Assembly: GCA_947459875.1 (NCBI GenBank)
Contig: CANHFG010000003.1
Coordinates: 162-64,161, forward strand
Length of the DNA: 64,000 nucleotides
Reading direction: 5' to 3'
From: Ignavibacteria bacterium
GTDB taxonomy: Bacteria > Bacteroidota > Ignavibacteria > Kapaibacteriales > Kapaibacteriaceae
In this document: positions 1-29,394 of the stretch, one piece after another
How the letters are laid out: the number at the start of each line of letters is the position of its first letter
How positions within the stretch are numbered: the stretch's first letter is position 1
Translations under genes and position numbers: made by a program
Notes under the pieces: generated by a model
The model's input: only the letters and a program-made list of their open reading frames with translations
Told to the model about the DNA's origin: nothing
The model's database searches: none

Positions 1-2082
1 GTTGAACGTGCCGCCAGTTGCTCCGATCGTCGTCGTACCCGTGCCGACCGTGCTGATGTCCACGTTTCCGTTGTTGCTCAACACCAGCTGCGTGGCGCTA
101 CCCGTGTTGAACGTCAGCGTGCCACCTGCACCCGTGCGCACGAAGCGCGACGAGGTGATGGCGTTAGCACCGTCCGACGAGGCACCGAGACGGTACTGAC
201 CCGAGGCATACTGTACGCCTTCGTTGGCTGTGCCCGTGAGCGTCGTGACGCGAACCTGGTTGCTGCCGTTAAGAGTCAGCATTCTGGTTGGTCCGGCGTC
301 GGTAGCCACACCACCCATGATGATGTTTCCGGTTGTTCCCGCATTAAGTGTGACAGATGTTGCACCGGCTGCCGTATTACCGATCGTCGTGTTCTTCGTT
401 CCAGTAGTGTTGATAGCCGTCGTACCCCGAACCGTCATACCAGCGGCACCATCTGCAACAATTGTCAGATCGCCATCGGTGAGGTCAAAACGTGCTTCAT
501 TTGTGCCATTACTAGCAGTGATAACGATTCCGCTGACGTCGAATCCCATCGTACGCTCAATCGATGAACCCTGGTTCCAGGCAAAAGCTGCCGATGTCGG
601 ATCCATCGTTACCGATGTCTTTGTGACACCACCAGTGGTTTCAAGGAGAATGTTCGCACCCTTCACTTCTGTGACACCGTTTACGGTGAACTTGCGTCCG
701 GTGCCTGGAGCCAAAGACACATTGCCATTCGACTGGAGGACGTTGCCAGCAAACGTCGAAGTAGTTCCGGTAATGCCGAGTACTGTTCCTCCGACTGGCG
801 TGATAAACTTCAGGAACTTGCCGCGGCTATCAATCCCTTCGGGATCCATGGAAATGAACGACAGGTCCGACGTAGCAAAGTCATTTGTTTCTAGAAGGAT
901 CTCGTTGCTTCCAGCATCGATCGAGATTGTCTGCTCGGCGTTGTTTGGCTGGATCGAGAACGCGTTCTGATTCATCGTCAGCTCCATAGGCCCAGTAGAA
1001 GGCCCGGCACTGACGGTAAAGATGTTCGCTGCTGCAGTGATGTTGCCGTTTTCAGTACCAATCGTTGTGTTGGCACTACCCGTCGTGTTGATGCGGGTAG
1101 GACCCGTAACCGTCACGAACCCTGGACTTGCCGAATTGAGATTAACTCCAAATCCAGCTCCTGCAGTGCCCCCTTCGAAGTAGGCAATCGTTGATGCGCC
1201 ACCATTGGTGGTGTAGATCAGGTCATTGCCATTGAGGTTGATATAGCGATCGCTCAGCAGTGGATTGGCTGTCGTCGTCGTCGATCCTAGCCGCATCCGT
1301 CCATTCGACGCCTCGTTATAGGTGATGCCTGCCTCTGCTCCGAGCAGATCCGCTAGGGAACGACGCTTAACGACATTCGACGGAGAGGGGGCGATCAGCA
1401 CTACATCATCGGTAAATGTTCCATTTGAGTTCAGACCCGCGATCGTCACTGACTGACCGGTAGCGTCGATGTTCAATGCACCGTTAACATTGATCACATC
1501 TGTGGCTGAAGCGTTGCCAAGGTTTGTGTTGCCTTGGACGGTAAGGTTGCCGGTGGTAACAAAGTTGCCAGAACCATCAAGCGTTGCACCAGAGGATGCA
1601 ACCCACTGACTCGTGGCATTATTGTACCGAAGGATGGCATCCGAGGAGCCTGTTGGGAGGTTGAAGCGTAGCTCCCCACCAGCATTGGTGATCACGATGC
1701 CACCAAGCCCCGTTGGGGTCAGCTGCTCGTATGATCCGCCCGTAGTCCCAAGTACCAACTTCCCGACGTTCATGTTGAGCGTCTCAACAAGTCCGTTGGA
1801 ATTGGACACAAGGATCCGATTCGGTTCGAGCGTGGCGTTCGGCGATACAAGCAGGTAGCCACTCGCATCGGGCAGAGCGTACGTCCGCGCGCCCGTCAGC
1901 ACAGGAACTTGCAATGTGCCTGTGAACGCCGCGTTGATATTCGCTCCCCGTAGGATCAGGTTGCGGGTACCCACATCCTGACCGAACGATGTCGCCACCG
2001 AGAGTGCTGTAGCAGCAATCGCCAGTGAAAGGAAGATTCGCTTCATAGTCATTTGACCTTGTGTAATCAATTTCTTCTTCAT
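1..2082 (-). CDS. Large repetitive surface fibre/adhesin-like protein, N-terminal ~690 aa only (gene continues beyond the left edge); paralog of the adjacent 4127-aa gene
   Basis: My own minus-strand translation gives an uninterrupted frame from nt 1 to ATG 2082 (in-frame alternatives at 2052 and 2046). The N-terminus MKKKLITQGQMTMKRIFLSLAIAATALSVATSFGQ looks like a signal peptide. It contains ITYNEASNGRMRLGSTTTTANPLLSDRYINLNGNDLIYTTNGG and GVQYASGQYRLGASSDGANAITSSRFV modules like the giant ORF. It is missing from the ORF track because no stop lies in the window. Confidence 0.75.
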   Translation of the reverse strand, partial: MKKKLITQGQMTMKRIFLSLAIAATALSVATSFGQDVGTRNLILRGANINAAFTGTLQVPVLTGARTYALPDASGYLLVSPNATLEPNRILVSNSNGLVETLNMNVGKLVLGTTGGSYEQLTPTGLGGIVITNAGGELRFNLPTGSSDAILRYNNATSQWVASSGATLDGSGNFVTTGNLTVQGNTNLGNASATDVINVNGALNIDATGQSVTIAGLNSNGTFTDDVVLIAPSPSNVVKRRSLADLLGAEAGITYNEASNGRMRLGSTTTTANPLLSDRYINLNGNDLIYTTNGGASTIAYFEGGTAGAGFGVNLNSASPGFVTVTGPTRINTTGSANTTIGTENGNITAAANIFTVSAGPSTGPMELTMNQNAFSIQPNNAEQTISIDAGSNEILLETNDFATSDLSFISMDPEGIDSRGKFLKFITPVGGTVLGITGTTSTFAGNVLQSNGNVSLAPGTGRKFTVNGVTEVKGANILLETTGGVTKTSVTMDPTSAAFAWNQGSSIERTMGFDVSGIVITASNGTNEARFDLTDGDLTIVADGAAGMTVRGTTAINTTGTKNTTIGNTAAGATSVTLNAGTTGNIIMGGVATDAGPTRMLTLNGSNQVRVTTLTGTANEGVQYASGQYRLGASSDGANAITSSRFVRTGAGGTLTFNTGSATQLVLSNNGNVDISTVGTGTTTIGATGGTFN

Positions 2083-2111
2083 TGCAGTGTCCCCCCGGTT
2101 TCCCAACACGA

Positions 2112-5100
2112 TCACTGGTTAACGACCATGACATTCACGACAACCGTCTCACCACCAAGAAGTGGCTGTGAGAAGTAAACGTCGATAGTGCCAGGGACAA
2201 TATTGCCGCCGCCATCCTTCGGTCGCTTGATCTGATGCGATAGGATGCCAGGGCCGGTATAGTCTTCGACCGTGATGATCACGACCGAGTTAGCATTGAA
2301 TTGACTGTTCGTAATCGAGTACTTGAAGTTGCCATCGCCATTGATACGAACACGCTCTGCGTACTTGTTCGAGGCTGCCGCGCTGTTCAGCCGTTCAACG
2401 CCAGCACCACGAACCTGTCCAGTCACAGTCAGGTTGTTGTCAATTGTCGTTGCGCCCGAAACAGTGAGCAGATCATCTACGAAGACCGCTCCACCATTGT
2501 CAGTGCCAGCATCTGTGATCGTGCCGGCCGTTGAAATGTTCAAGTTCGACGAGGCCAGTGAGAAGTTACCGGTTGTGTTGATCGCGATTGCATCGGCATC
2601 GCCATTTCCGATGTTTGCCGCACCATTGAGGTTCGTCGTTCCGGTAACGGCCGCGTTTTGCGACACCGACAGGCTACCGTTGGTTGTGACCGTATTACCG
2701 GCACCAGGGTTGATCGCAACATCGCCGCTGCGCGTCAGGCCCGTCTCGGCAACTGTCAGATCGGCTGCTGCACCCGTGTTCACCGTCACGACATCACCAT
2801 CACCGTTGCCGATGTTGGTGTTGCCGTTGAGATTCGATGTGCCGGCAACTGTTGCATTCTGCGACACCGATAGGCTGCCGTTGGTCGTAACCGTATTGCC
2901 TGCACCAGGGTTGATCGCAACATCGCCGCTGCGCGTCAGGCCCGTCTCGGCAACTGTCAGATCGGCTGCTGCACCCGTGTTCACCGTCACGACATCACCA
3001 TCACCGTTACCGATGTTGGTATTGCCGTTCAGATTGGCCGTCGCATTGACTGACAGCGTCGAACCCGTCATGTTGACGATCGTTCCCGATGTTGTCGTGA
3101 AGTTCAGATTCCGGTTGTCGATGTTCACAAAGCGGTCCGACGTGAATGGGACCTCTGTGCTCGTTGCACCACCAAGCTTGTACTTGCCAGCGTCATAGAT
3201 AACGCCCTGTTCGGCTGTGCTGCTCAGTGTTGTCTTACGAACCGAACCACCTGCGTTCAAGGTCAACATCTGTGTTGGTGTGGCATCCGTATCAATGTTT
3301 TGCAGAACAAGATCACCACCTGGATTGAGCGTGATGTTGTTCACGCCGCTTGATGCTACCGAAACGGCACCGCCATTGGTGGAGTTACCGACAGTTGTCG
3401 ACCCAACGCCAGTTGCGTTAATCGTGGTAGCACCCTGGATGTCTGTGACACCCTTGATCGTGACTTGGTCGGCTGTCGTGCTGTTACCAAGTGTGGAGTT
3501 GCCGTTAACGGTGAGATTGTTGTTGATCAGCGTGTTGCCTGTCACATTGACGGCACCGTCCGTAAGCTCAATCTCCGATGTGCCGACTCCCGAAGTGCTT
3601 GCCGTGATGATCAGGCCACCGTTGTCTGCGCCGATTGAACGCTCTGACGTGGCACCCTGATTCCAGGCCAGTGCCATTGCACTGTTACTCATCGTGAGCG
3701 ATGTTTTCGTACCGGCACCGGTCGTCTCGAGGAGGATATTCGCTCCCTTGACCGTTGTCTCACCGGTGATAGTTGTCTTACCGGTGATATCGATGAGGTC
3801 AGTTGATGCATTACCGAGGATCGTGTTACCCTTGACTTGCAGGTCTCCCTCTGTAATGATGTTGCCCGCAGATGCATTCATCGTGATGTTCGAAGCGCCC
3901 GCAGCTCCGATTCTTACATCACCGTTGAAGCCAGCAGCACCGCTCACAAGGAGTGCATCATCAACAAACACTGCACCGCCATTGTCGGCACTTACATCTG
4001 TTATCGTTCCCGCCGTTGAGATGTTCAAGCCAGATGAAGCAAGTGAGAAGTTTCCTGACGTATTGATCGAAATCGCATCCGCATCACCGTTCCCGATGTT
4101 TGCAGCACCGTTGAGGTTCGTTGTGCCAGTGACGGTGAGATTATTCGCAGCAGAGATGTTGCCGCTGACGTTGACCGCTGAGCCACGCAGTGTCAGCACC
4201 TTTGCGGTGTTGCCAATAGTCGTGCTTCCAGAGACCGTGTTGTCTGAATTGATCAGAACATCAGTCGTTGCATCAATGGTAATGGTGCCTGGGTCGACCA
4301 AAATGTCGCCACTTTCTGCGCCACTGATTGCTGTGGCTTGGATTCCTCCAGTGGCGTTGTTAACGTAAAACGCTGTGTTGCCACCATTAGCGGTAACCGT
4401 AAAGGTATTCGTGCCTACGTTCGAGGTAACCGCGCCGCCTGAATGATTGACCGCTCCATTTACATTTATGGTCGATCCGTTCAGGTTGAGGATGTTGCTG
4501 AGGTTACCCACGCCAGTCGCCCCAGCACCTGCTGTGGTGTTGATATTAGTCGTTCCACGAACCGTTGTTACCCCATTGATAGCAATGTTCCCTTCATCAA
4601 GAGACAACATTGAAAGAGGAGCAGCTACGCCGTCTGTGTACGTAAAATTCAGTGCGAAGTTTCGCTGATTAATGAACCTGTCACTCTGGAAGAGTTGCTT
4701 GTTGTTCGCATTAGCACCTAGTCGCAACTTTCCGTCGGTATTCGTCTCATTGTAGGAGAGGCCCTGTTCGGCACCAATAACGTCAGCAAATGAACGCCGG
4801 CGAACAACATTCGTCGTTGTCGTGATCAGCATGACGTCGTCCGGTGTAGCTCCCGTGACAGAGCCTGCAGGCAGGCCGCCGACTGTGAGGCTATTGCCCG
4901 CACCGCTGACATCAAGAAGAACAGCCCCATTCGACTGAGATAGTGACCCACTCATCGTTGTCGCACCGATGACATCTAGCCCGGAATTCGCATCAACGTT
5001 ACCGTTGAACGTTACCTGGCCGGCTGACTGTGTCAACGAGCCGGTTAGTGTTGTTGCGCCGTTTACACCAATTGCGGATCCCGTAAGGGTCAATGCACCT

Positions 5101-8100
5101 GTGGCATTGCCGATGCTGGTGGCGCTGGTCGTTGTTGTGTTAACGTTTGTCGTTCCACGGACTGTCAAAGCTCCGTCGAGATCAACCACACCATTCTTAA
5201 GAGCCAGCATCGTAGACGTAGTCGCACCATTCAACCAGGTAAACTCAATGCCGTTACCGCCTTGATTAATGAAGCGATCACCGCCCAGAACTGAGTTAGC
5301 TGCAGCCGACCCCTTGGTTGACGAACCGAGGCGCATACGACCGTTCGATGCCTCATTGTACGTGATACCCCATTCACCGCCAATTAGATCTGCAAGTGAG
5401 CGACGACGTACGACATCACTGCCGTTGATCAGAAGGACATCATCTGCGAAAGTACCTGTTGCGCTGAGGCCACGAATCGTCATGCTGCCGTTTGTAGGCG
5501 TACCGCGAAGATCAATCGTCATGTTATCGCCAACACGTCCTGTGTTTTGACGACCGATAAACGAACTTCCATCCAGACGCATACCAGCAGGAGCAATTTC
5601 AAGTTCAACCGAAGGGGCTACCCTATCGTTCGCAGTGATGATCGTAGCATACGACGATGGGTCGATGGCCAGCGTAGCTTCACCAGAGGCACCATCATCA
5701 TACGTCAGCTGCGTACCAATAGCCGTCATGTTGAAGGTCATCTTCTGGGCTGTACCGACATTGAATTCGATGCTTTCCGAGTTGCCGGCTGTCACCGTGG
5801 TGTTTCCTGTGACGTCCAGTCCATTCTTCGCATCAACATTTCCGTTGAGAGTCACCTGGTTAACAGCTCCCGTCTGTGTCATAGCACCATTAATGGTCGT
5901 AGCACCAGTTATCGACGTCGCACCGGTGATCGACGTCACTGCCGTAATGTTCACGTTGTCAAGCGTGGCATTGTTTCCGAGGGTTGTGTTGCCCTGAACG
6001 CTGACGTTGTTTGGCATGGTGACCGTCGTACCGTTCAGGTTGATCAATGTTCCGCCGTTGGTCGTAAAGCTCAGATTCTTGTCACTGACGTTTACGAAAC
6101 GATCTGACGTCAGCGGAACTTGTGTCGCATTCGTGCCACCGAGCATGTACTTGCCGTTTGCGAACATCACTCCTTGTTCCGCAGTACCAGACATGTCCGT
6201 GCGGCGCACTTGACCGGTACCGGTCAGGGTCAGCATCTGCGTTGGAACTGCGTCAGCGTCAATACCCTGGAGAACGAGGTCACCGCCAGCTTCGATCGTG
6301 ATGTTGTTCGCACCCGCAGAGGCGATCGAGACCGATCCTCCGGTTGCGGTGCTTCCGATGGATGTCGACCCGGCACCTGTCGTGTTGATCGTGGTAGCAC
6401 CGGTGATCGATGTTGCACCGGTGACCGTTAGATCGTCGGCGATCTCGACAGGACCAACGTTGTCGGCGATCACACCTGTGTTGGATATCGTCAGGTTTGA
6501 CGATGCCAGCGAGAACGATCCGGTGGTGTTGATAGCAATGGCGTCGGCATCACCGTTGCCGATGTTCACAGCACCATTCAGGTTCGATGTGCCGTTGAGG
6601 GTTGTTACTCCAGCAACCGTCGTGTTGCCCGTCACTGTCGTATTTCCTGCAACAGTGAGATTGCCATCCGTAGCGACGTTGTTACCTACTCCAGGATTGA
6701 TGGCAATCGAACCAGAGCGGGTCAGCCCCGTCTCAGAAATGATCAGGTTGGCAGCAACTCCGGTATTGACCGTGATGACGTCACCATCACCATTGCCAAG
6801 ATTCGTAGCTCCATTGAGGTTCGACACGCCGTTGAGCGTAGTGGTTCCGGTTACCGTAAGGTTGTTGTTAGCTGTGACATTACCGGTGACGTCAACTGCC
6901 GAGCCAACGAGAGTCAGCAACGCAGATGTGTTGCCGATGGAGGTGGCTGAAGTATTAGATGTGTTGATCGTCGTTGTTCCACGCACGTCAACGGTAGAAC
7001 CACTCATCGAAAGTGGGTTTGAGGTGTTCCCTATCGTCGTTACGCCTGAACCGGCCGACGAGTTGATGTTCGTTGTGCCAGCGATTTGCACAGTTCCCGA
7101 ACCGCCGGAAGCACGGAGATTGACGCCACTGTTTGCGCCACCAACCACCTGAAGAGGTGTTTGTGTGCCCGCGTTGGCCGTAATGGAGAGGTTGTTGTTG
7201 TCAACATTGACGAAACGATTCGTCAAGAACGGGACGTCTGTAGCGGTTTCAGCACCGAGACGGTACTGGCCGCTTGCAAAGCTGACACCCTGACGAGCCG
7301 TGCCAGGAAGAGACGTGCGGCGAACCTGATTGGATCCGTTGATCGTAAGCACTTCCGTTGGGACAGCATCAGTAGCCAGCCCGTTCATGACAATGTTGCC
7401 GCTCGCAGAGCCAGCGCTGATCGTCACCGTCGATGCATTTGCACCGTTGTTACCGATGGTCGTACTTCCCGATCCAGTTGCATTGATTGAGGCGGTTGAT
7501 CCTGTCAGTGAAACAGTGCTGGATCCATTACCGATGGATGTAGCAGGCTGCCCGGCAGATGTGTTGATCGACGTCGCACCAATGATTCGCGTCGTCCCGG
7601 TGATCGTCGTCGTGCCGGTTGATTGAATATCGATGTCGCCATCAAGCTGCGTCTCTACCGTGGCAGATGTCCCACCCGGCAGGTCGAAAGAATAGAGTGT
7701 CGCTTCTGTTGGCGTTAGAGACAGGCCATTTTCCTGGTTAAGAGCAGCCCCCTTCGAGAAGAGACTAGTCACACCTGAAGCTGAGTTCATTGAGAAAGCC
7801 ATGCCGCTAGCCACGGCACCATCAGTTGTGACGTTGAAGTCACGACCAGGACCTGGTGTGAATGTCACATCGCCACCCGTCTGAGAAAATCGACCCGTTA
7901 CATTAACGGAAGATCCACGAAGATTCAGCACGCCCGTAGTGTTACCGATGGAGGTTGCTGCAGTACCGGCGACGTTGATGTTTGTTCCACCGTTGATCGT
8001 GATTAGTCCCGTTCCTGCGGCGTTGATCGTTGCGCCGTATCCACCGGCACCTCCGTCAAGCGTCAGAACATTTGCTGCACCGCTGGTAAAGTTCAGATCG

Positions 8101-11100
8101 AAGTTTCCGAGACTGACAAACCGGTTGCTCGTCAGGGGGCTCACGCCGTTCGTAACAGAACCGAGGCGCATTTTGCCCGAACCACCCTCGTCATACGTGA
8201 TGCCTTCGTCTGCACCAAGGATGCTTGCAAGTGGCGTACGCGAAACGACGTTTGTTCCATTGATCATGAGCAGATCAGCGCCTGGTGTTGTGCCCAGACC
8301 GATCATGCGGAGGGTGCTGCCAGTGACATTTGCCGTGACGGCATCGCCACCGATACCATCACCAAGGTTTACGGCGCCGTTGGCATTGAGCGTTCCGCGA
8401 ACGGATGTATTACCCGTGGCGGCGTTGACCGTGAAACGATCTGCGAACACTGCGAAGTTGCCCACCACATCCAGCTTCCGTGCCATTTCCACGTCGCCGG
8501 AGAACTGCACGAGGTCAGGTGTTGCCTGATAAAGCGTGCCCGAGAACTCAAGTCCTGAACCAGTGACGCGAAGCTCGCCTGACGAACCACCCGCAATATC
8601 TTCAGCAATGATCACAACATTCGTCGAGCTCGGATCGAGAACGACACCCATTTCCTGGGCCGCGTCCACGTACTTGAATGCACTAACCGAGGATGGTGCC
8701 AGGCTCAGGTATGAACCTGCGGTGACATCACCGACTCCATTGACGGCACCCGACTTCAGATCAATCTTGCCCGTGCCTTTTGAGCGAGCAGTGATGCCGT
8801 AGTTAGCTGTGCCCCCTGAGAGGGTCAACATGTCGTCGGCTGTATTTCCATTATTCGTGGTGAAGGTCAGTCGACCAGTCGTCCCAATGTCTACAAAGCG
8901 GTTGCCAGTGACGGGGTTCGTTCCGCGCGTCGCTGAACCAAGACGAATACGAGCGGCACCGCCTTCGTTGTACGAGACACCCTGATCTGCATCGATCAGA
9001 GACGTGATCGGTGTGCGCGACACAACATTGGTACCGTTGAGCATCATCACGTCGGTTCCTACAGCCGTGTTGATACCGGTCATCGTCATTTGGCTACCAG
9101 AGACGTTCACGGCAACTGCATCACCACCGTTACCGATGTTGACAGCGCCATTCATGTTCGCCGTACCGGTCAGAGTCGATGCGCCACCAACACTGAGGTT
9201 GCCATTCGTCGAGACGGTGAACGCCGCACCTGGATTGATCGCGATGTTACCAGTGCGTGTGAGGTTGCCCGCGCCGTCATCAGAGAGACTAGCATCAAGG
9301 ATGCCCGTTCCATTCGCGTCCCAACGGGTGAGACGGTTTGGCGTACCCGTACCAGTTACAATGTTGTTGATCTCACGCACCTGGAGTGCGCCGCCGGCTC
9401 CACGCATGATAAAGTTGTTGACCGTCGTTGTTGTCGGCAGGTTCGCCATCGTCACCGTTGCGGCATTCACCGTGAGGTTGTCTGCGGCAGCATCACCGAT
9501 CGTCGTGTTGCCATTAACGGCAAGAGACGACTGAAGTGTCGTAGCGCCAGTGACGTTGAGAGAATTATTGATGGTTGTTCCACCATTGATCGTGGTCGTT
9601 CCTCCGATCGTTACCGTTCCAGACTGCTGCGTAAGGTTACCGGTCAGTGTCGATGGACCGGCCACCGTCAATGCACCCGTTACATCCACGCCGCTGTTGG
9701 CGTCCACGTTGCCACTGAACGACACCTGACCGCCACCATTCTGCGTAACAGTTCCGGCGATCGTAGTGTTACCGGTGATCGTTGTGACACCGGTAACATT
9801 TGTCGGTCCGTTGAGCGCGATCGCACCTGTGCCACCTGCATTGATGGTAGCACCGTAGTTAACAGCTCCACCGTCCAGGACGACAATGTTGTTCGCTCCA
9901 CCACTCGTTGTAAATCGCAGATCGAAGTTGCCGAGATTGATATTTCGGTCAACTTGAAGCGTGTTGGCACCTGCACCATTGGTGACCGTTGAACCGAGTC
10001 GCACACGACCCGTTCCGTCGTCATTATATGTCAAACCCTGATCGGCATCGATCAGATTGGCAAAAGCCGAACGCGAAACAACGTTCGCGGCATTGATCAT
10101 CAGGATCTCGTTTCCGGGGACGGCTGGGAGGCCATTAATCCGGAGTGTACCTGCACCACCCGCAACGTCGATTACGACATTGTCACTCGTTCCGTCACCC
10201 ATGTTGACGTTGCCGTTCAGTGTCGCAGCACCGTTAACCGTCAGAGTACCGTTCACCGACGTATTGCCCGTAGCAGGTACTACCGAGAAGTTAGCGCCTC
10301 CAACCGTGAGGTTCTGACCAGTGACGTCGAGGCCATTAGTGACATCTACGTTACCATTAAAGGTGACCTGATTCGCCGCGCCTGTCTGAGCAATCGTCCC
10401 GGCGAATGTGCTCGCACCAGTGACATCGATACCGGAGTTAGCGTCGACATTCCCGTTCAGAGTAACCTGATTCGTAACACCGGTCTGTGTGAATGAGCTA
10501 TTGACTGTTGTTGGTCCATTTAGGCTAACGTTACCGCCCGTCTGAGTGAGCGATCCGTTCATCGTAGTCGCGCCCGTCACATCGACACCGCTGTTAGCGT
10601 CAACGTTACCATTGAATGTTACCTGACCGCCACTCTGCGTGTACGTTCCCGACTGCGTAGTGGCACCGGTTATGGACGTTGCTCCTGCAATGTTGGTCGT
10701 GCCGTTGATGGCCACAGAACCCGTACCAGCGGCGTTCATCGTGATACCGTAGTTGGCAACACCACCATCAAGGACCATGAGGTTCGCATTACCTCCATTG
10801 GTCGTGAAGGTCAGATCGTTTGCCGCCAAATTCACGAAACGATTTACGACAAGAGGCGAACCAAGTGTTGTGGTTGCACCAAGACGAACCGATCCCGTTC
10901 CACCTTCGTTGTATGTGATACCCTGATCTGCATTGATGAGTGCGGCGATCGGAGCGCGCGTGATAACGTTCGCTCCGTTGGCCATGAGAACGTCCGTACC
11001 TGCGACGTTCGGCAATCCGATCATCGTCATGACACCGCCACCGGCAGTATTGATGGTGACGTTATCGCCGGTGCCATCGCCAGCGACAACGTTGCCGCTG

Positions 11101-14100
11101 AGGGTTGACGAACCGGCAACATTCAATGTACTGTTGAATGTCGCTGCTCCATTAGCAGTGATCGAACCAGTCATCGATGTGTTGCCTGTCGCAGGGCTGA
11201 CGGTGAAGTTCGATCCACCGACCGTGAAGTTTGCGCCGGACACATCGAGACCATTGTTCGCATCAACATTCCCGCCGATGGTCACCTGGCCGCTTGCCTG
11301 AGTGAACGAACCAGTGACATTTGTAGCACCGGTCAGGGCAATGCTTCCCGTACCCGCAGCATTGATGGCGGCACCAAAGTTCGTGGCGTCGCCATCGAGC
11401 AAGAGAACCGTTGAATTGCCAGCGTTTGTCGTAAAGCGAAGATCGTTGTTGCCCATATTGACAAAACGATTGCCGGTCATCGTGGACGCCGTGTTGTTTA
11501 CCGCACCGAGGCGGACCTTTGCACTACCAGCCTCGTTATATGTCAGACCTTCATCGGCACCAACAAGCCCCGTGATCGGGAAGCGCGAAACTGCGTTCGT
11601 TGCACCGATCATGAGTACGTCTGCACCGGCCACGTTTGGTAGTCCATTCATGCTCAGTGCACCGCCACCTGCCGTGTTGATCGATACGTTGTCGCCATTA
11701 CCATCACCGGCAACGACATTGCCGCTCAGTGTTGCGCTTCCGACAACGGCCAGAGTGCTGTTGAGTGTGGCTGCTCCATTGGCTGTGAGCGTACCTGCCA
11801 TGGACGTGTTGCCATTGGCGGGATTGACAGTGAAGTTTGTTCCACCGACCGTGAGGTTGGCACCCGTGACATCAAGTCCGTTGTTCGCATCGACGTTTCC
11901 GCCGAAAGTTACCTGACCACCCGATTGCGTTACGGAATTTGTGATCGTTGTTGCGCCACCGATTGAAACCGTACCACCAGCCTGCGTGAGGTTGCCCGTC
12001 AGCGTCGTCAGACCGACGACGTCGACTCCTCCGTTAGCATCGACGTTTCCACCGAACGTCACCTGACCACCATTCTGCGTCAGCGTGCTGCTGAGCGTCG
12101 TGGCTCCCGTCACTCCAAGCGTACCGCCTACTGTAGCCGCACCACCGACGCTCAACCCAGTGCCAACCGTAGCGTTGTTCGTTGTGGTTACCGTGTTGAA
12201 CGTCACATTGCTCGTCGTGGCAATGTCCTGCGGCGTGCTGAGCGTGATGCTGCCTGCGCCGTTCGTTACCGCGATCTGGTTGGCTGTTCCCGTGATCGTT
12301 GCAATCTGAGGTGCAGCGCCAGTCGAGCCGATGAGGAGTTGGCCGTTTGTGAGAGTAACCGACTCGAGCTGGCCCGTTGCGTTCGTACGAACGGCCGCGT
12401 TAGCACCAAGTGGTGCCGCCGATGTTGAATAGATGGCCGTCGAAATCTCGAGGTTGCCCGTACCCGCATTACGAACAAGCACACCGCTTGACGATGTAGT
12501 GTTTCCAACGTTCGGGATCGCTACCGTGGCGGCGTTGATCCGCACCTGGTCGGCTGCTGCATCACCAAGTGTTGCATTTCCATTGACCGTGAGGTTACCG
12601 CCTGCTGACGAGAGAATGTTACTTGTTGGAACCCAAGCATTTGCTGCGGCATCCCAGCGAAGCGTCTGGTCCGACGTCGTTCCCGGCTGCGTCGTCGATG
12701 CGATGATGATATTTGGAGACGAGTACGTTACCGTCATCCCCGTACCGGCGACGATGTTGCCGACAGCCGGAGCCGTCGTAGCGCCCGTGCCAATGAGGAG
12801 CTGTCCGGCACCCTGCTGCGCACCTTCAACAATGCGGCCACCGCTGGATACCATTACACGGTTGTTGTTCAGAGCGGTCGATGAATTCGTACCGCCAAAC
12901 TGGATCGGAAGAACCCCTGACGAAATGCTCGATGCGTTCAGGTTTGTGATGAGCGATCCGTTCGCTGCAGGAAACTGCCCAAGGCTATTGAGCATGACGA
13001 TGTTGTTCGCTGTGTTAACGTTTACATCGCCCGCAATGAAGTTGTTGCGAAGAGCAGTGACCATGCGTGAACCCGCACCAGCTGCCGTAGAGAGCGTTGG
13101 TGATGGGTATGAGCCTGCCAGGTCGCCCGTTGCCGGACCTGACGGAGGAAGCGTCGTTGGGATAGTTCCCGGCGCAAGATCAATGACTGTCAGCGAGCCG
13201 TCGCCAACCTGCTCGGAACGCACAGCTCCGATGGCAATCTTCGGATTCGTTACTGCGAGATCGGCGATCTTAGGCGTCGTCACATTCAAGTCGAGGATCT
13301 TCGACGTTGTAACGGCGTTTGTCCGGATCAGAGGGTCCGGATAGGTTCCCGTGAGGTCGCCCCCTGCAGGAACGATGAATGGGAAGTTTGTAAGGGGCTG
13401 AACCGAGATCAAGGTAACACGACCTTTATCGTCAACCGTGATCCTTGGAACATTCAGGTTATCACCGTAGGTGCCGGCTGCGACACCTGTCGTGGAGAGC
13501 TTTGGAGTCGTCACGGCACCGTCGACGATCTTCGTCGTGGTGACAGCGTTATCGGTGATCTTCGTCGTCGTCACGGCACCATCAACAATCTTCGGAGTGG
13601 TGATCGCACCATCGGCGATCTTCGGTCCTGTAACAGCTCCAATGGCGATCGTTGGATTCGGATACGTACCCGTGAGGTCACCACCCGCTGGACCACGAGG
13701 CGGCAGCGATGTCGGAATAACACCAGGTGCGATCTTCGATGCCGTCACTGCCCCATCAACGATCTTGATCGTCGTGATGACACTGTCAACAAGTTTAGCT
13801 GTTGTAATCGTGCTATCGGCGATCTTGATCGCTGTTACAGCACCATCACGAATGTCGATCGTTGTGTTCGGGCCACTAGGGTTACCAATATCGATGGTCG
13901 ATTGAGGGCTTGCAAGGTTCTGAATCCCAACCAGCGTAATCGTCGACTCGATGTTGATCGTATCACCGGTGCGCGTTACAGCAACACCGTTTCGTCCAGC
14001 AATGACAAGGTTGCCCTCTGCCTGGTTCAACGAACGCACAAATCCGCGGGCGGATACGTTTACGCTATCGGCAATACCGGCACGTTCTGCGCGAACAGCG

Positions 14101-14471
14101 TAAGGAACAACCGCCAGTCGCGTGCGCGGGAATGGCGGCTGCCCTGCAAGGGCTGTCTCGAGGTAGGCCTGCGTGTTGAAGAAATCAACATTGGCCAGTG
14201 GCACCACGGCACCGAGATAGACGTTGAACAGTCCCTTCGTCAGGACGGTCTGCTGCGTCTCTTCCCAGAGAAGATTGCCCCCTACCGGCGCATCGTACAA
14301 GCGCATGACGAGATCATACTGGCCATCGTCGAGAGGCAAGCCATTAGGCAGCGTCAGCAAGCCTTGATAGCTTATCTGACGTTGGATCTGCGCATAGGTT
14401 GCCGTAACGGCTGTAGCCATTACGCCCACAACAAACAGCAGGGCGAGGCAAGGGCGAAGAAAACGGTTCAT
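2112..14471 (-). CDS. Giant (~4120 aa) repetitive, secreted fibre/adhesin-like protein with phage-tail-fibre-like modules
   Basis: 4127-aa ORF in the track. The likely start is ATG 14471 ([28 protein letters not shown], signal-like). The protein is rich in T/G/N/A/V, and I saw no Cys beyond the signal peptide. The N-terminus has a [21 protein letters not shown] domain, [10 protein letters not shown] motifs and 11-aa xAVTTxKIxDG repeats. There are 10 copies of a ..YNE..G..RLG....NRFVN...L.FTTNGG module. No PNPF-type T9SS CTD is visible at the C-terminus. Confidence 0.9.
   Translation of the reverse strand: [4119 protein letters not shown]
2634..3035 (-). repeat. Tandem 2 x 201-nt (67-aa) duplication inside the giant gene, with a 107-nt perfectly identical core
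   Basis: The unit [62 protein letters not shown].GT. occurs twice. Nt 2701-2807 equals 2902-3008 base for base, while the flanks differ at scattered positions. Confidence 0.9.
13176..13847 (-). repeat. Blocks of 33-nt (11-aa) periodic repeats xAVTTxKIxDG in the N-terminal part of the giant protein
   Basis: Examples are [87 protein letters not shown] and [33 protein letters not shown]. Coordinates come from my residue counting (aa ~217-440). Confidence 0.7.
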
Positions 14472-14494
14472 GGTTCTGACCATTAATGTGTTCA

Positions 14495-15058
14495 TTAGCG
14501 AATGATGGTAAGGGTCTGAGACTTGCGGAATGGTACGCCGGAGACTGTAGTCCCCTCGACCTCGTACACGTATGTTCCCGCCGGCAACGGAACCCCATAA
14601 TCGTCAACAGCTTGCAGCATTACGTCTTGCGAACCGGCCATAGAAACTTCGGCGGTGACGGTTCGCACGAGTGCGCCCAGCAAATTGTAGACTCGGATCT
14701 TTAGCCCCCCTTCAACAGGGGTGGCGAATCGAATTGTCGTATGCGTAGTAAAAGGATTCGGGAAGTTCCCGAACTCAGCAATTGACTGCTCTTCACGGTC
14801 GTTAACTCCGACCGTGCCATAGATATAAGGAACCCAGAACCCCTGGTAGAGGGCTGTGCTGTCTGAGCGCACCTGCGCCGAGATCACGGCCTGGCCGATC
14901 GTGCTCGAAATAGCCGAGCCGTTCGGGGAAGCCGATAGAAGTGACGCTCCGGATCCAATCACGGAGGATGTCAGTCTCGGTTGTGAGGTCGCTGAATGAG
15001 CTACCAAAATGAGCCCTCCCAGCAACAGCGTACAAAAACGACGCATTTGTTGCTCCAT
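14495..15058 (-). CDS. Small secreted protein made of a ..STIGQAVIS..YQGFW segment plus a T9SS-type C-terminal sorting domain
   Basis: This is track ORF 14495..15127, with likely start MEQQMRRFCTLLLGGLILVAHSATSQ (ATG 15058, or 15046). The C-terminus NFPNPFTTHTTIRF...KIRVYNLLGALV...LPAGTYVYEVEG...KSQTLTIIR fits the T9SS type-A CTD pattern. It lies immediately upstream of the giant gene. Confidence 0.7.
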   Translation of the reverse strand: MEQQMRRFCTLLLGGLILVAHSATSQPRLTSSVIGSGASLLSASPNGSAISSTIGQAVISAQVRSDSTALYQGFWVPYIYGTVGVNDREEQSIAEFGNFPNPFTTHTTIRFATPVEGGLKIRVYNLLGALVRTVTAEVSMAGSQDVMLQAVDDYGVPLPAGTYVYEVEGTTVSGVPFRKSQTLTIIR

Positions 15059-15400
15059 TACCTTTCGAATCACGTACAATCTATGACAAGCGGCTCCATT
15101 CTCCAAACCTTCCCCGGTATTTGTCACAAGAAGATGTGAATTTATTTATGGAGGATTGTGGATAACTTACCCCGTCTGCCCCATGTTGTACGGGCGACAA
15201 TGTGAGTAATAATACGCTACTCTGCAAGAGCTTCTCAGCTACGTACGCTTGGCTTATCTGCCATGAGGCGTTCATTGCGAGTGGTAACCTTGTAAATGAC
15301 AACGGCCCGTCCCCCAGAAAGCCCCCTCGCCTCTTTATGGCGGTTGCACTTCCCGTTGGACGGGCCGAAATTGAGAGCTACATGGTCGAAGAAGCCTTGT

Positions 15401-16753
15401 TTAGGTCTTCGCCTGCTCGTACCCTAAGAATATGAAAGCATTAAGGTTAACGCTTAACTGGCGGTTGTTGACAGGGATCATTGGAGTCCAGTCGTTGACA
15501 ACAACCTCATGCATACGGTCTCCCTCAAAGCCGATAGATATGCCTGTTTGGGCGGACTCGATGGCACCGACGGTCGGACCCGGGACGGTTGTGATCTCGT
15601 CAAAGCTGGCTGGGGGGCCCGCATCGTCGGGTTCGACACCATAATTGAGGGCATGCGTGTGTCCGGGGTCGAACACGTCATGCGTGTGTGCTCCACCGGG
15701 TGAGGAGTAACCGAAGAGTGGTGAAAGGTTCTCCTGCTGAATGGTGTAGTCATTGGAACCGGATAACGAGCCAACCTCCTCCGGCCCATGACCGCCAATG
15801 CCAAGTTCGTCACGATGCTTAATAACACGGTCTCGTGTATCGGGCAACGACCCCAGGAAGCCAAGGATCGCTGCATTTGCCTGTGCCACCGCTGGCAGCG
15901 TAGTAGTATTCTGACCATTTAGTCGATACCATCCATTATGATTACTTGTTGCGTAGGAATACTCAACGTCTCCGATGTTCGCCACAAGTGCAGCCGGCAG
16001 ACGACCGGCCGCATCAAGGACGACCACATTGCCTGCAGTGTTAATGTCGGGATTCATCGCCTGGGCGGCTGTCCGGTTAGCTGTAACGACCCTGGCGCCA
16101 GCAGCGGCCGAGGTTGACAGTAAAGGGTTGGGATATGTGCCGGCAAGGTCGCCCCCTGCCGGCACGATATACGGGAAATCGCCAACCGGACGGTTCGAGA
16201 TCAACAGCACACGACCTCTATCGTCAACCGTGATCTGAGGGATATTCAGTTCATTGCCATACGTGCCGGCACCCTCACCGGTCGGCAAACCAGCTCCCGC
16301 TTCGTCAAACGCATTGATCAGAACGTCGGTATGCTCAGTACCACTTGCCACAACTCGGATCAAGCGAACACATTCACCCGCGAGATTGAATAGCTGCACT
16401 TCAACCTCACCAGTAAATCTCTCAGGGATCCGGATCGTTGTCCTGACGGAAAACGGATTGGGATAAACCTCGAGTCGATCGTACACCTCTTCATTGATCT
16501 CGAGAGCCGTCAACTCAAATCTCCAGGGGACCTAGAAGCCCTCAAAGAGACTCGATGCAGCTGTGAGTGCGGGCGTAGAGATGATCGTCTGTCCAAGAGT
16601 CGACGACAGAAACACGGAATCCGAGGTCGCCGCTACGTTGACGGCTCCTCCCGAGGCGATGACGCGCGAACTAAGAACCGGCTGGGCGCAAAGCGGGATG
16701 GCTGTTGCTATTGCCCCGATTACATAGAGCGCGATTACATGATGTGTTGCCAT
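15401..16753 (-). pseudogene. Interrupted or chimeric gene: signal peptide + ..STLGQTIIS..FEGF[TAG] + T9SS-CTD-like segment + tail-fibre module + phage tail-collar-like domain
   Basis: Track ORFs 16532..16783 and 15401..16513 are in the same frame and separated only by TAG 16532-16534. FEGF*VPWRFE aligns with YQGFWVPYIYG of the neighbouring gene. The downstream part carries VYPNPFSVRTTIRI..VQLFNLAGECV (CTD-like), then [33 protein letters not shown] (also in the giant gene), then NGWYRLNGQ...LPDTRDRV...GGAHTHDVFDPGHTH. Confidence 0.55.
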
Positions 16754-16893
16754 GATGCATCCTTTCGATGATGAACATGGCAAGTCTATCAGCGCGATCT
16801 TTCTGAAGCGCTACGATGAAACACTATGTCGCAGTGATTACGAAGTAAGGACGCGGTAACGTCGTACTTCCAGACGAATATGCACGCGATACT

Positions 16894-23614: not shown

Positions 23615-25060
23615 TCACAACGAGCCCCTTCGTGCAAAATGTGCCGTCCGTCCCTCGAGCTTCCATTTGTCAAGATTCAGCAGCATATAATCACGCGCTG
23701 CATCCTCCTCATTGGGGATGATGCCGTCGAGGATCGCCTCTTCGATCATCCACTTGATGTAGCCTACCTCGCGTGATGGCCCGAGACCGGTCACGGCCAT
23801 GATCTCTTCGCCGCGCACCGGACTTTGGAATGAGCGCAGACGATCACGCTCCAGCACATCAACGAGCTTCTGCTCAACGATGTCGTAATTCTTGAGATAC
23901 TTCTGCGCCCGGGAAGGATTGCGCGTAGTAATGTCAGCGCGGCAGAGCTTGAATAGATCAGCAATGCCATCGCCCGCCTGAACGGCCAGGCGCCGTATCG
24001 CCGAATCGGTCACCCCCTCATCCACCAGCTTCATGGGGCGCTGATGCAACCGCACGAGCGACTCGACATAGTCGAGGTGCTGCATCGGCAACTTCATGCG
24101 TCGAAAGATTTTCTGCTGCCAGCGCGCTCCGATCTCTTCATGCCCGTGAAAGGTCCACCCTGTGCCTTCGATAAACTTCTTGGTACGGGGCTTGGCGATA
24201 TCATGCATGAGCGTGGCAAATCGCAGCCACAGGTTTGGCGACATCTGCGCAACATTATCGACCACTTGCAGCGTATGCAGGAACACGTCTTTATGTCCGT
24301 ACTCTCTCGAACCGGCAACCACGAGCTCTGTCCCGGCCAGGTTCGCCACCTCCTGGAAAATGTGCTTCATCAGTCCGGTGTACTGCAGGATCTTCAAACC
24401 CACACTTGGACGGGGCGCAGCAAGGATTTTCATGAACTCATCGGTGATGCGTTCCTGCGAAATGATCGTGATCCTGTCTGCCATTGAGGTGATCGCCGAG
24501 ACGAGTGCAGCATCGAGATCAAACTCCAGCTGTGCAGCAAAACGAGCCGCACGCATCATGCGGAGCGGATCATCGCTCATCGTCACAATCGGGTCGAGCG
24601 GCGTACGAAGTAGCCTGCGCTCGATGTCTTCAGCCCCCTGAAAAAGGTCGACCACTGCGCCGAGACGTTCCGGGTGAAGGTCTGCAGCCAACGCATTGAC
24701 GGTGAAGTCCCGGCGTCGTAGATCATCCTCAAATGTCCCCTCGACAACGATGGGCTTTCTTGAATCTGAACGGTACTCCTCGCGCCGTGTACCCACGAAC
24801 TCAAGATGATGATCGCCCACGGGAACAAGTGCCGTACGGAATCGCTCATACTCTACGGTCTTTGAGCGAAACAGATCGGCAACAGCCCGAGCAAAGGCAA
24901 GGGCGTCGCCTTCAACGCAGATATCGATGTCCGTGCGTGTCCGCCCCATGACCGCGTCGCGCACGTAGCCACCCACAACATAGGCACGTACGTTACGTTC
25001 GTGCGCGAGCAGGGCGATGCGCAACAGCACGGGATCCGTGATGTCGATCGTCGGGGTCAT
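23615..25060 (-). CDS. tRNA nucleotidyltransferase (CCA-adding)/poly(A) polymerase family protein with HD domain
   Basis: From ATG 25060 the protein reads MTPTIDITDP..AYVVGGYVRDAVMGR.RTDIDI (GGxVRD motif), then RDFTVNALA, then HDIAKP in the HD domain. The track N-terminal extension overlaps the transketolase gene and is rejected. Confidence 0.85.
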   Translation of the reverse strand: MTPTIDITDPVLLRIALLAHERNVRAYVVGGYVRDAVMGRTRTDIDICVEGDALAFARAVADLFRSKTVEYERFRTALVPVGDHHLEFVGTRREEYRSDSRKPIVVEGTFEDDLRRRDFTVNALAADLHPERLGAVVDLFQGAEDIERRLLRTPLDPIVTMSDDPLRMMRAARFAAQLEFDLDAALVSAITSMADRITIISQERITDEFMKILAAPRPSVGLKILQYTGLMKHIFQEVANLAGTELVVAGSREYGHKDVFLHTLQVVDNVAQMSPNLWLRFATLMHDIAKPRTKKFIEGTGWTFHGHEEIGARWQQKIFRRMKLPMQHLDYVESLVRLHQRPMKLVDEGVTDSAIRRLAVQAGDGIADLFKLCRADITTRNPSRAQKYLKNYDIVEQKLVDVLERDRLRSFQSPVRGEEIMAVTGLGPSREVGYIKWMIEEAILDGIIPNEEDAARDYMLLNLDKWKLEGRTAHFARRGSL

Positions 25061-25104
25061 GATCTGATTACTTGATGCAGGACCAAACAGTGGCAGGGGC
25101 CACC

Positions 25105-26103
25105 TCAGTCCTGGTATGTGGCAACGTCGCGAATAGCGCGCACACCGGAGCTCCCCTTGTCGCGACGTTCCATCGCCACAAGAGCAGAAGCATAGATCTC
25201 GCGCCAGGTGAGACCGAACTTCACCATCAGCTCTTCCGGATCGCCGGAGCCACCGAAGGAGTCCTTGACACCGACAAACTCGATCGGCACCGGAGCATTC
25301 TTTGCTGTGCATTCCGCAACTGCCCCGCCAAGTCCGGCGTGAACCTGGTGCTCTTCAGCCGTTACGATACAGCCGCATTCACGAGCGGCCTGCGTGACCG
25401 TGGCGAAGTCGAACGGCTTGACTGTGTGCACGTTAACGACGCGGGCAGATATGCCCTTCTTGGCAAGCTCCTTGGCGGCAAGAATGCTCTCCCACACCAG
25501 CGCGCCGTTGGCGATGAGCGCAACATCGGTACCATCCATGAGAACATTGGCCTTGCCAAGCTCGAACGGCGACTCCTCTGTCGTAAACATTGGTACCGGT
25601 GAACGACCGAAACGGATGTAGGCCGGTCCAATCATTTCGCCCATGGCAACGGTGGCCTTGCGAGCTTCGTAGTAATCGGCAGGGACGATCATCGTCATGT
25701 GCGGAAGCGTACGCAGAAACGCGACTTCTTCCAGCACCTGGTGCGTTGCACCATCCGGCCCAACACTGATACCGGCGTGTCCTCCGCCGATCTTGACATT
25801 TGCTTCGTTGTATGCCACCGAAATACGCAGCTGATCGGCGTTGCGCAAAGCACAGAACGCACCATACGAAGCAAAGAATGGGATCTTGCCACTGAGTGCG
25901 AGACCTGCCGCGATCGTTGTTGCGTTCTGTTCGGCGATACCAATTGAGAAGAACCGATCCGGGAACTTCTCTTTGAACAGCGAGGTCATCACCGATCCGG
26001 TGATATCCCCACCAAGTACAACAATATTGCTGTGGCGCTCGCCAAGATCAACGAGTCCGTCACCAAAGCCAAATCGCGTGGGTTTTGATCCGAGAAGGTC
26101 CAT
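25105..26103 (-). CDS. Transketolase, C-terminal (pyrimidine-binding) subunit
   Basis: 332 aa. ...RFFSIGIAEQNATTIAAGLALSGKIPFFASYGAF... is typical of split transketolase subunit B. Confidence 0.9.
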   Translation of the reverse strand: MDLLGSKPTRFGFGDGLVDLGERHSNIVVLGGDITGSVMTSLFKEKFPDRFFSIGIAEQNATTIAAGLALSGKIPFFASYGAFCALRNADQLRISVAYNEANVKIGGGHAGISVGPDGATHQVLEEVAFLRTLPHMTMIVPADYYEARKATVAMGEMIGPAYIRFGRSPVPMFTTEESPFELGKANVLMDGTDVALIANGALVWESILAAKELAKKGISARVVNVHTVKPFDFATVTQAARECGCIVTAEEHQVHAGLGGAVAECTAKNAPVPIEFVGVKDSFGGSGDPEELMVKFGLTWREIYASALVAMERRDKGSSGVRAIRDVATYQD

Positions 26104-26223
26104 CAGGTTTCAGGTTTCAGGTTTGAGGTTTGAGGTGTGGGGTGTGAGGTCACTCGTCACTCTGTCACTACGTAATTCCGTAACTCCGTAATTCCGTAAT
26201 TCCGTAATTCCGTAATTCTCTTC
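26104..26223. repeat. 120-nt mosaic of short tandem repeats that fills the whole spacer between the two transketolase half-genes
   Basis: The plus strand reads (CAGGTTT)x3, GAGGTTT, GAGGTGT, GGGGTGT, GAGGTCACTCGTCACTCTGTCACTA, then (CGTAATTC)x6 with one CGTAACTC. No non-repeat base lies between ATG 26103 and TAA 26224-26226 apart from tcttc. Confidence 0.95.
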
Positions 26224-27123
26224 TTACGGCATCGTCGACATTTCTTCCAGGGCGGCTATCGCTTGGTCTTTGGAAGGGGGCTTACCGTGCCATTCAAACT
26301 TGTCATTCATGAACGAAACGCCGTGGCCCATATAGGTTCGCGCAATGATCGCTGTCGGCTTACCGGTCTTATTGCGCTGGTTCTCAAGGAACCGGTCGAA
26401 TCCGCGCATGAGGTCGGCGTAGTCGTGACCGTCAACGACAATGGTGTCGAAGCCAAAGGATTCGCACTTGGCATCGATCGGATACACGTTCATCACATCA
26501 GGCACGCGGCCGTCAATCTGACAATCGTTATTGTCGATCAGCCAGCAGAAGTTATCCAGCCCGAAATGCGAAGCCGCCATTGCTGCTTCCCAGACCGAAC
26601 CTTCTTGGAGCTCTCCGTCACCGGTGAGCGAGAACACGCGGCGGTCGTTTCTGTCGACCAGCTTGTCACTCATAGCCATGCCGACGGCGATGGAGATGCC
26701 CTGACCAAGTGAACCGGACGATGTTTCTACGCCGGGAAGGTGCATGTCGCGTCCCGGATGGCCCTGCAGACGCGTGTTGTACTTACGCAACGTCTCCTGT
26801 TCTTGCTTAGGGTAGCATCCGGCGTTTGCCAGCGCGGCATACATGACCGGCGCCATGTGTCCAGCCGACAGAACGAATCGGTCGTGCGTTGTATCATCCA
26901 TCCGGGCTGGATCGTACCGCATGTACCCACCAAAGTAGAGAACGGCGAAAATATCGGCCGATCCGAGGGGGCCGCCGCTATGACCGGAGCCGGCGCGCAC
27001 GAGCATTCGCACGATATCGCGGCGGATCTCATTAGCGATCGGTGCAAAATCCTCCGCAGACCGACGTTCATTAGTGAACGTGGTGGTGTTGAAGTCCAGC
27101 GAGGCCTTGGTTTCCTGTGTCAT
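26224..27123 (-). CDS. Transketolase, N-terminal (TPP-binding) subunit
   Basis: 299 aa. It contains ..SGHSGGPLGSADIFAVLYF.. and ..SLTGDGELQEGSVWEAAM.. (GDG-x-QEG TPP motif). Confidence 0.9.
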   Translation of the reverse strand: MTQETKASLDFNTTTFTNERRSAEDFAPIANEIRRDIVRMLVRAGSGHSGGPLGSADIFAVLYFGGYMRYDPARMDDTTHDRFVLSAGHMAPVMYAALANAGCYPKQEQETLRKYNTRLQGHPGRDMHLPGVETSSGSLGQGISIAVGMAMSDKLVDRNDRRVFSLTGDGELQEGSVWEAAMAASHFGLDNFCWLIDNNDCQIDGRVPDVMNVYPIDAKCESFGFDTIVVDGHDYADLMRGFDRFLENQRNKTGKPTAIIARTYMGHGVSFMNDKFEWHGKPPSKDQAIAALEEMSTMP

Positions 27124-29393: not shown

Positions 29394-29394
29394 C

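Follow-up and report, generated by a model that had tools for sequence, protein, structure and literature searches.

A predicted giant MAT-like fibre in Kapabacteria and its conserved small partner gene with a type IX sorting domain

The small CTD gene, the giant fibre gene and gene 2

The window analysed here is a 64,000-nucleotide (nt) stretch of DNA from an Ignavibacteria bacterium of the order Kapaibacteriales (GenBank assembly GCA_947459875.1, contig CANHFG010000003.1, positions 162–64,161). Positions 1–15127 of the window hold three consecutive genes on the minus strand (Table 1). These are a small gene whose product ends in a type IX secretion system (T9SS) C-terminal domain (CTD), a giant fibre gene, and the 5′ part of another fibre gene, termed gene 2. 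Judged by its domains, the giant is a distant, much enlarged relative of fibres of the mosaic adhesive trimer (MAT) kind, and neither an orphan nor a new secretion signal. The small CTD gene accompanies the fibre gene as a conserved partner.

The giant encodes 4127 amino acids (aa) from its first ATG, or 4119 aa from the ATG at 14471, close to the ~4120 aa given in a first-pass annotation of the window. Its orthologues in Kapabacteria metagenome-assembled genomes (MAGs) are 4680, 4711 and 4872 aa long. T, G, A, N and V make up 15.0, 14.4, 10.7, 10.6 and 9.0 % of the protein (together 60 %), which bears out the compositional bias noted earlier, and Cys and His are near zero. The N-terminus, MNRFLRPCLALLFVVGVMATAVTATYAQ, resembles a Sec signal peptide by eye, and orthologues have the same layout. 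Gene 2 starts with MKRIFLSLAIAATALSVATSFGQ, also signal peptide-like by eye, in keeping with the leaders first proposed for both fibre genes.

The open reading frame (ORF) of the small partner extends from 14495 to 15127, with a probable start at the ATG at 15058 or 15046, which gives a protein of about 183–187 aa. Its TAA stop codon overlaps the first ATG of the giant as TAATG. The N-domain of the small protein has the pattern ..IGSGASLLS..STIGQAVIS..LYQGFWVPY, and the CTD, in addition to passing TIGR04183, matches PF13860/PF18962. Other large proteins of the window had also been described as ending in a CTD. Those encoded at 29479–33951 and 50374–52818 pass TIGR04183, and the one at 27270–29393 narrowly misses it, with 19.6 bits for a cut-off of 23.

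The greater part of the giant, residues about 640–4020, is a stalk in which ~90-aa modules are set apart by T/G/N-rich beta-strand spacers. The module has the pattern ..DVLMI..N.V.R....L..A..G.TYNE..G..RLG...NRFVN...L.FT.. and its copy number rises with fibre length among relatives, from 1–3 copies in fibres of about 1280–2190 aa to 11 in the 4680-aa fibre. The module has no relative in Pfam, nor in the PDB sequences when a module pair is searched, and its tenfold expansion in the giant appears to be new. Scans of the whole giant and gene 2 proteins against Pfam, NCBIfam and PHROG gave no matches.

Table 1. Features of the fibre locus, in window coordinates
Feature	Position	Strand	Description
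Gene 2, 5′ part of second fibre	1..2082	-	ATG at 2082, ~30 nt after the TGA of the giant; runs off the window
Giant fibre gene	2112..14495	-	ORF; 4127 aa from first ATG, 4119 aa from ATG at 14471
C-terminal ~100-aa tip domain	2115..2420	-	Residues 4026-4127, ..NKYAERVRINGDG..VVVNVMVVNQ; conserved, beta-sandwich model
Stalk with 10 module copies	3057..11657	-	Residues 947-3813; mapped by regular expression and hidden Markov model (HMM)
DUF5907-type region	12936..14000	-	Residues 166-520; 11-residue DGAVTxxKIxD repeats, GDL(T/A)G(T/S)YP(N/D/S)P x3, GTYG..ITVDDKGRV
Beta-rich N-domain, ISYQGLL..	14001..14387	-	Residues 37-165; NF053851 match, AlphaFold model; proposed cell-proximal attachment domain
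Sec-type signal peptide of the giant	14388..14495	-	Residues 1-36, expected cleavage after ..TYAQ; read from sequence, same layout in orthologues
Small partner gene	14495..15058	-	Signal peptide, ~55-aa N-domain, T9SS type-A CTD; TIGR04183 29.7 bits (cut-off 23)
Probable 5′ end of operon transcript	15060..15113	-	RNA contigs end at 15060 (then Illumina adapter), 15087 and 15113
Broken first cassette (pseudogene)	15401..16810	-	Small CTD gene with in-frame stop, deletion-fused to middle of 682-aa-type fibre

Relationship to MAT fibres, DUF5907 proteins and phage fibres

The MAT fibres that Caulton et al. (2024, Nat Microbiol; PMC10769870) characterised in Bdellovibrio bacteriovorus are surface-exposed trimeric fibres with a signal peptide and an invariable ~130-aa beta-rich, cell-proximal N-domain. 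Their tips are swappable and of S74 or non-S74 type, and the surface element that binds the N-domain is not known (PMC10769870). The N-domain of the giant matches the NCBIfam model NF053851 (Bdello_MAT_N) with an E value of 1.3e-5 and 25 bits, against a cut-off of 60 bits. The same model matches the N-domains of 16/16 diverse relatives, with a best E value of 3.7e-10. On sequence grounds, the NF053851 match is the decisive link between the giant family and MAT fibres; since 60 bits is the cut-off of the Bdellovibrio subfamily, the giant would be a relative and not a subfamily member. An AlphaFold model based on a 43-sequence alignment gives residues 37–131 as a beta-sandwich, with a predicted local distance difference test score (pLDDT) of about 90.

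The N-domain is widespread. A 682-aa sister fibre, encoded in orthologous Kapabacteria loci, retrieves >4093 homologues that share its N-terminal part, nearly all with a precomputed PF19264 (DUF5907) assignment, from Kapabacteria, Ignavibacteria, Chlorobi-like and Bacteroidota genomes. The N-domain of the giant is common to the 682-aa fibre and >4000 proteins. The family is not uncharted: the link of its N-domain to MATs partly places it in an already characterised adhesin class, an outcome named beforehand as counting against the first-pass annotation. The literature search found no paper using the name DUF5907, and no homologues from the FCB group (Fibrobacterota, Chlorobiota and Bacteroidota) were found in the supplements of the MAT paper (PMC10769870).

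The region that follows the N-domain resembles DUF5907 proteins, annotated in Bacteroidota as 'tail fiber domain-containing', with which the giant shares the N-domain, GDLxGxYPxP motifs and 11-residue repeats. GDLTGTYP occurs at residues 272 and 379, GDLAGSYP at 457, and GTYGDNLNVP..ITVDDKGRV at 341, so that the motifs reported at first reading are present. The match to PF19264/DUF5907 is weak (E 1.1e-3, 19.6 bits), and unlike PF19264 proteins the giant scores below the Pfam cut-off of 27; the DUF5907 family itself has no described function. The 682-aa sister fibre is among the homologues for which a PF19264 match is precomputed. The 11-residue repeats match the orf16 chain of PDB entry 9eg4, a capsid model of Legionella phage LME-1.

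The giant family shares several properties with the Bdellovibrio MATs. The giant has a signal peptide directly followed by a ~130-aa beta-rich N-domain, and its family consists of long phage-like fibres with interchangeable C-terminal tips of S74 and non-S74 subtypes. In both, several paralogues occur per genome, often in tandem, and the N-terminal end is proposed to be cell-proximal. There are also differences. The hosts are Kapabacteria and Bacteroidota, with a different lifestyle, and the giant fibres are 4127–4872 aa long compared with about 600–1100 aa in MATs. DUF5907 repeats are present in the stalk, as are ten copies of a module for which no counterpart is described in MATs. The fold of the tip agrees with none of the top 50 PDB hits, and the fibre is accompanied by a dedicated T9SS mini-protein gene, unlike Bdellovibrio MATs as described. 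The giant is probably a homotrimer, by analogy with MATs and with relatives that carry the trimer-specific S74 chaperone or C1q domains, and we infer that the N-domain is cell-proximal and the tip distal.

The C-terminal tip domain is distinct, as given in the first-pass annotation, and rare, and it appears to be new. When 1.84 billion representative proteins were searched in full with HMMER, about 10 true clusters emerged, and in each of them the domain is the extreme C-terminus of a fibre-like protein. The AlphaFold model (12-sequence alignment) is a six-strand beta-sandwich with a pLDDT of about 90. Neither the tip sequence nor the tip profile has a meaningful sequence relative in the PDB, and Foldseek found no match to the model at E <= 1e-3 in the PDB or BFVD. 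Among the weak fold matches, the best are to the C-terminal domains of phage tailspikes (those of phi297 gp61, LKA1 gp49 and Pam1), to a snail lectin, to CBM3 and to Caudovirales proteins that are uncharacterised.

The relatives have similar N-termini but different C-termini. Three fibres (loci L033, L040 and L042) have Peptidase_S74 with E values of 1e-16 to 4e-18, a fourth (L031) has a weak match, and C1q (PF00386) is found in some members. Other C-termini are collar-like ..FIFLGY, ..GKINVLVSIK and ..KLTRVN-type, among others, so the same N-domain carries at least five tip types. For the C-terminus of the 682-aa sister fibre, a Pfam search gave no Collar match at E <= 0.01. At locus L129, the giant-type tip is on a 1905-aa fibre with a gene-2-type N-terminus, and the long fibre upstream has a different tip, ..KLTRVGP. 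Because tips are swapped in this way at L129 and vary among the relatives, the C-terminal domain of the giant is read as a distal exchangeable tip, and not as a sorting or anchoring device.

Three known secretion classes were tried for the giant and rejected. As T9SS type-A cargo (TIGR04183/PF18962), it gives no match, whole or as a C-terminal piece, and its tip has no profile similarity to the CTDs of the window (hhalign 0.2 %). As type-B cargo (TIGR04131), 12 C-terminal domains of the family gave no NCBIfam match at E <= 10, in a search whose sensitivity is limited by HMMER filters. A trimeric autotransporter adhesin of the type V secretion system (T5SS) with a YadA-type C-terminal anchor gave no Pfam match, and the domain is a soluble-type beta-sandwich ending in ..MVVNQ, without a terminal aromatic residue.

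The picture of tail-fibre-like secreted fibres, as first drawn, stands. The parallels to phage tail fibres and tailspikes are the S74 intramolecular chaperone at the end of relatives that share the N-terminus, and the joining of a conserved N-terminal end to a variable receptor-binding C-terminal end. Unlike phage fibres, these appear to be Sec-exported chromosomal cell proteins and not parts of a virion, and the giant has no S74.

The small CTD gene as partner and the proposed display of the fibre

The pairing of the small gene with the fibre gene was followed in two sets of loci. In the first, genomes were scanned with the N-domain pattern [RK]xI[ST]YQGLLT, which gave 46 Kapabacteria/Ignavibacteria-type loci. 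With an HMM of the small protein, full-length homologues are detected directly upstream, in the same orientation, in 28/46 of these and directly downstream in a further 6 (total 34/46). The pairing persists where the fibres share only 35–40 % identity (L041, L047, L050) and where the gene order is reversed. The second set is based on the INYQG-type N-domain of Bacteroidota and consists of 78 Chitinophagaceae loci. A ~180-aa gene of equal architecture is directly upstream in 76/78, and the remaining two have no upstream DNA. The two groups of small proteins are collinear from end to end (hhalign 96 %; CTD part 95.9 %; N-part alone 9 %), and their N-parts share the landmarks GG..xG(Q/E)..(Q/N)G(F/L)xxP.

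In orthologous Kapabacteria, the genes are in the order queC, small CTD gene, 682-aa fibre, small CTD gene, giant, 840–966-aa fibre and further fibres. The pairing of small gene and fibre is thus present twice in tandem. The earlier, openly speculative suggestion of a functional tie between the small CTD protein and the fibre receives strong backing from this conserved gene order and from the RNA contigs common to both genes.

Transcription was assessed in freshwater metatranscriptome assemblies, which contain a strain about 98.5 % identical to the window. An RNA contig of ~12.1 kb covers position 2970 to 15060–15113, which includes the small gene and most of the giant, and its end falls just upstream of the start codon of the small gene. 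Another contig, at 208–2694, spans the stop codon of the giant and the start of gene 2. RNA cover of 15172–16500, the broken cassette described below, is almost nil. Contig depths are 126/79/57 and 135/64, which is similar to the 148/125/97 of the adjacent rpsB-tsf-frr-queC contig. The contig ends, spans and depths together support an operon that starts at about 15060–15113 and is well expressed. In metatranscriptomes, the giant ranks with the well-covered genes of an abundant lake bacterium.

Variants of the cassette are found. At L034, L040, L048 and L049, and at L002 3548–4423, larger proteins of 290–560 aa come after some of the fibres and not before them. They combine the same short N-motif and a CTD with an additional middle domain and thus represent expanded members of the partner family. 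One Kapabacteria fibre with the same N-domain (L031, 283–2742) ends in Peptidase_S74, a coiled coil and a T9SS CTD-like domain (TIGR04183 21.7 bits, cut-off 23). Fibre and sorting signal may be fused in this protein.

The reading that we favour, with a probability of roughly 0.6, is that the giant is a MAT-like trimeric adhesin, of phage-derived kind, whose N-domain is held by a mini-protein delivered by the T9SS. The giant would be exported by Sec, and its ~130-aa beta-rich N-domain would remain beside the cell. A very long stalk, made of DUF5907-type repeats and then of ten ~90-aa modules with beta-rich spacers, would hold the small interchangeable beta-sandwich tip away from the cell. The tip would bind a target, in adhesion or recognition. 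The mini-protein would be exported by the T9SS, lose its CTD and become fixed to the surface, as is possible for T9SS type-A cargo (PMC10994853), and would there hold the N-domain of the fibre. The binding of N-domain and mini-protein, the surface location, the polarity and the export route are in each case predicted. A dedicated T9SS mini-cargo partner of a fibre appears to be new.

In addition, the mini-protein may serve to bring the fibre, itself devoid of a CTD, through the translocon of the T9SS. If so, it would be the adaptor of a new mode of type IX secretion, and this more far-reaching form of the proposal is offered tentatively. A folded trimeric fibre without a CTD, of up to about 4900 residues per chain, would be recognised via its N-domain, carried through SprA by the type-A CTD of the adaptor and left anchored. 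The adaptor would then be the 'surface element' by which MAT-type fibres are retained in FCB bacteria. SprB of Flavobacterium johnsoniae, and with it other giant T9SS adhesins that have a type-B CTD, is a partial parallel, as it is also a giant repetitive surface protein of an FCB bacterium, with an adjacent gene thought to provide carriage and anchorage (PMC10994853). However, a type-B CTD is part of SprB itself, which is partnered by an outer-membrane protein of the PorP family (PorP/SprF-like). The giant has no CTD, its partner is a small soluble type-A CTD cargo, and the proposed attachment is N-terminal.

MAT-kind fibres, characterised only in 2024 in a predatory bacterium, are on this evidence widespread in Bacteroidota, Kapabacteria and related phyla, and can exceed 4000 residues. 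The mini-protein is a concrete candidate for the missing MAT anchor, and it provides a testable hypothesis for the display of CTD-less proteins by T9SS organisms. Cultured Chitinophagaceae (Terrimonas pollutisoli H1YJ31, Terrimonas sp. R1 and Flavisolibacter longurius BT320; loci L060, L062 and L107) carry the same cassette, which makes such tests feasible.

Several observations weigh against the proposal that the mini-protein holds, or carries, a MAT-like fibre. There is no adjacent partner in 12/46 Kapabacteria-type loci, e.g. L018. Distance correlations (mirror-tree) of the fibre N-domain are 0.83 with the partner N-part and 0.82 with the partner CTD, and thus give no extra co-variation of the two N-terminal parts beyond that seen with the CTD. 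The MAT_N match of the giant, besides being below the curated cut-off, spans only profile positions 15–76. The N-terminal model has no PDB match at E <= 1e-3 in Foldseek, which finds generic immunoglobulin-like folds only. The monomer model of the DUF5907 region is of low confidence (predicted template modelling score 0.26), and the trimeric state is predicted from MATs and from relatives. Contig depth is a crude measure of expression, and carry-over of DNA into RNA libraries is possible. The FCB fibres are known here from sequences, models and RNA contigs alone. Literature searches yielded no case in which a partner takes a protein without a CTD out by the T9SS, and nothing specific on T9SS with tail fibres and secretomes or on Kapabacteria with T9SS.

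The mini CTD protein could be an anchor only. It would then be a surface receptor, and the fibre would cross the outer membrane by a route other than the T9SS, for instance a type II-like system (T2SS-like) or vesicles. To our knowledge, Bdellovibrio has not been reported to use a T9SS. Its MAT fibres reach the surface (PMC10769870), and an N-domain-dependent, CTD-independent route may thus exist; the missing literature precedent for piggybacking on the T9SS also favours this alternative. On the other hand, the conserved cassette contains no other secretion genes, and the tight pairing and the overlap of stop and start codons fit a 1:1 complex formed early. In addition, the fibre that ends in a CTD-like domain, although just under the cut-off, points to the T9SS as the route in FCB bacteria. 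We consider an anchor without a role in export to be rather unlikely.

It is also conceivable that the adjacency has no functional meaning and the small CTD protein is secreted independently, or that this protein acts not as anchor or carrier but as a folding helper in the periplasm or as an immunity-like factor. The giant would in this case be left as a large and ordinary adhesin, uncharacterised, whose tip domain is new. The near-equal mirror-tree values, the 12 loci without a detectable neighbour and the N-parts that can barely be aligned alone are compatible with this. But in Chitinophagaceae the pairing is 76/76 where upstream DNA exists. It is also kept at 35–40 % identity of the fibre N-domains and in reversed gene order, the partner is duplicated together with the fibre, and both genes are on common RNA contigs. 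An adjacency without meaning, or a role other than anchor or carrier, is improbable.

The C-terminal ~100-aa domain might itself be a new outer-membrane sorting or anchoring signal, either a third class of T9SS CTD or part of another system, with the N-terminus distal. It is at the exact C-terminus in every carrier and, like T9SS CTDs, is a beta-sandwich of about 90 aa. However, tip and window CTDs are unrelated by profile, and 0/12 members match the NCBIfam type-A or type-B models at E <= 10 (HMMER filters limit sensitivity), which leaves intact the claim that the giant has no recognisable T9SS sorting domain. No T9SS CTD structure is among the top 50 fold matches of the tip. A sorting signal should mark many cargo proteins, whereas this domain is very rare, and S74, C1q-type and other tips are found in its place on sister fibres that share the N-terminus. 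A sorting role for the domain is thus very improbable, and the favoured reading, with the N-domain attached to the mini-protein, assigns it to the distal end of the fibre.

The S74 of relatives, the repeats that match a phage capsid-associated chain and the weak fold matches to tailspikes bring to mind structural genes of a phage-derived particle, such as a prophage or tailocin. But Sec signal peptides are present on all fibres and partners, there are no phage genes nearby and no PHROG matches, and the position between the housekeeping genes queC/frr/tsf/rpsB and other fibre genes is kept in several MAGs, so that a virion tail fibre was rejected and a role as structural genes of such a particle is hardly credible.

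Gene 2, the broken cassette and variation in the giant gene

Gene 2 had been described as a second giant gene of the same family, in tandem with the first. It does start at 2082, 30 nt after the giant, and has the common repeat module, with two copies of the ~90-aa unit and 24–29 % identity to the stalk of the giant. Its N-terminus is of another type, without the ISYQG/DUF5907 part, and the protein is probably about 900 aa long and not a giant, given that orthologues have 840–966 aa.

This second type of N-terminus, with the pattern ..L.LRG......G.LQVP.LT..RTY.LPD.SG.., is found on fibres that follow the long fibre in the operon (L001 at 24040–31282, L129 and window 1–2082). These fibres have no small CTD gene of their own, and their C-termini, ..GGWRVLSVN and ..FVYSGGAWH, represent another shared tip type. 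Perhaps the first fibre, and not the cell, is what fibres of this type attach to.

Upstream of the small gene are the remains of a first cassette, which is intact in relatives. Positions 5–71 of the small-protein HMM are found in the ORF at 16535–16810 and positions 73–159 in that at 15404–16531, with an in-frame stop at HMM position 72. The CTD, which extends to about position 159, is then joined to the middle of a fibre (GTYGNELNIPQITVDDRGRV..). The chromosomal context, with queC/frr/tsf/rpsB on one side and other fibre genes on the other, is conserved among MAGs.

The giant gene varies between strains. In the ~98.5 % identical metatranscriptome strain, positions 4259–4540 and 6197–6403 carry unlike sequence of exactly equal length (280 and 205 nt). 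Such equal-length block replacements suggest a mosaic exchange between repeat units or alleles. Near the C-terminus of the giant, at about 2630–3040, there are two nearly identical consecutive units of ~67 aa (NLNGNTNIGNGDGDVVTVNTGAAADLTVAETGLTRSGDVAINPGAGNTVTTNGSLSVSQNA). RNA assemblies fragment into short contigs exactly at 2665–2895, as expected from a recent duplication of these units.

Several MAG records (L005, L011, L013, L015, L101 and L115) have labels that are implausible for FCB-type genes, namely Chitinophaga pinensis for the 100 % match to the window, Patescibacteria, Hyphomicrobiales and Citrobacter freundii. These records are probably mis-binned or mislabelled.

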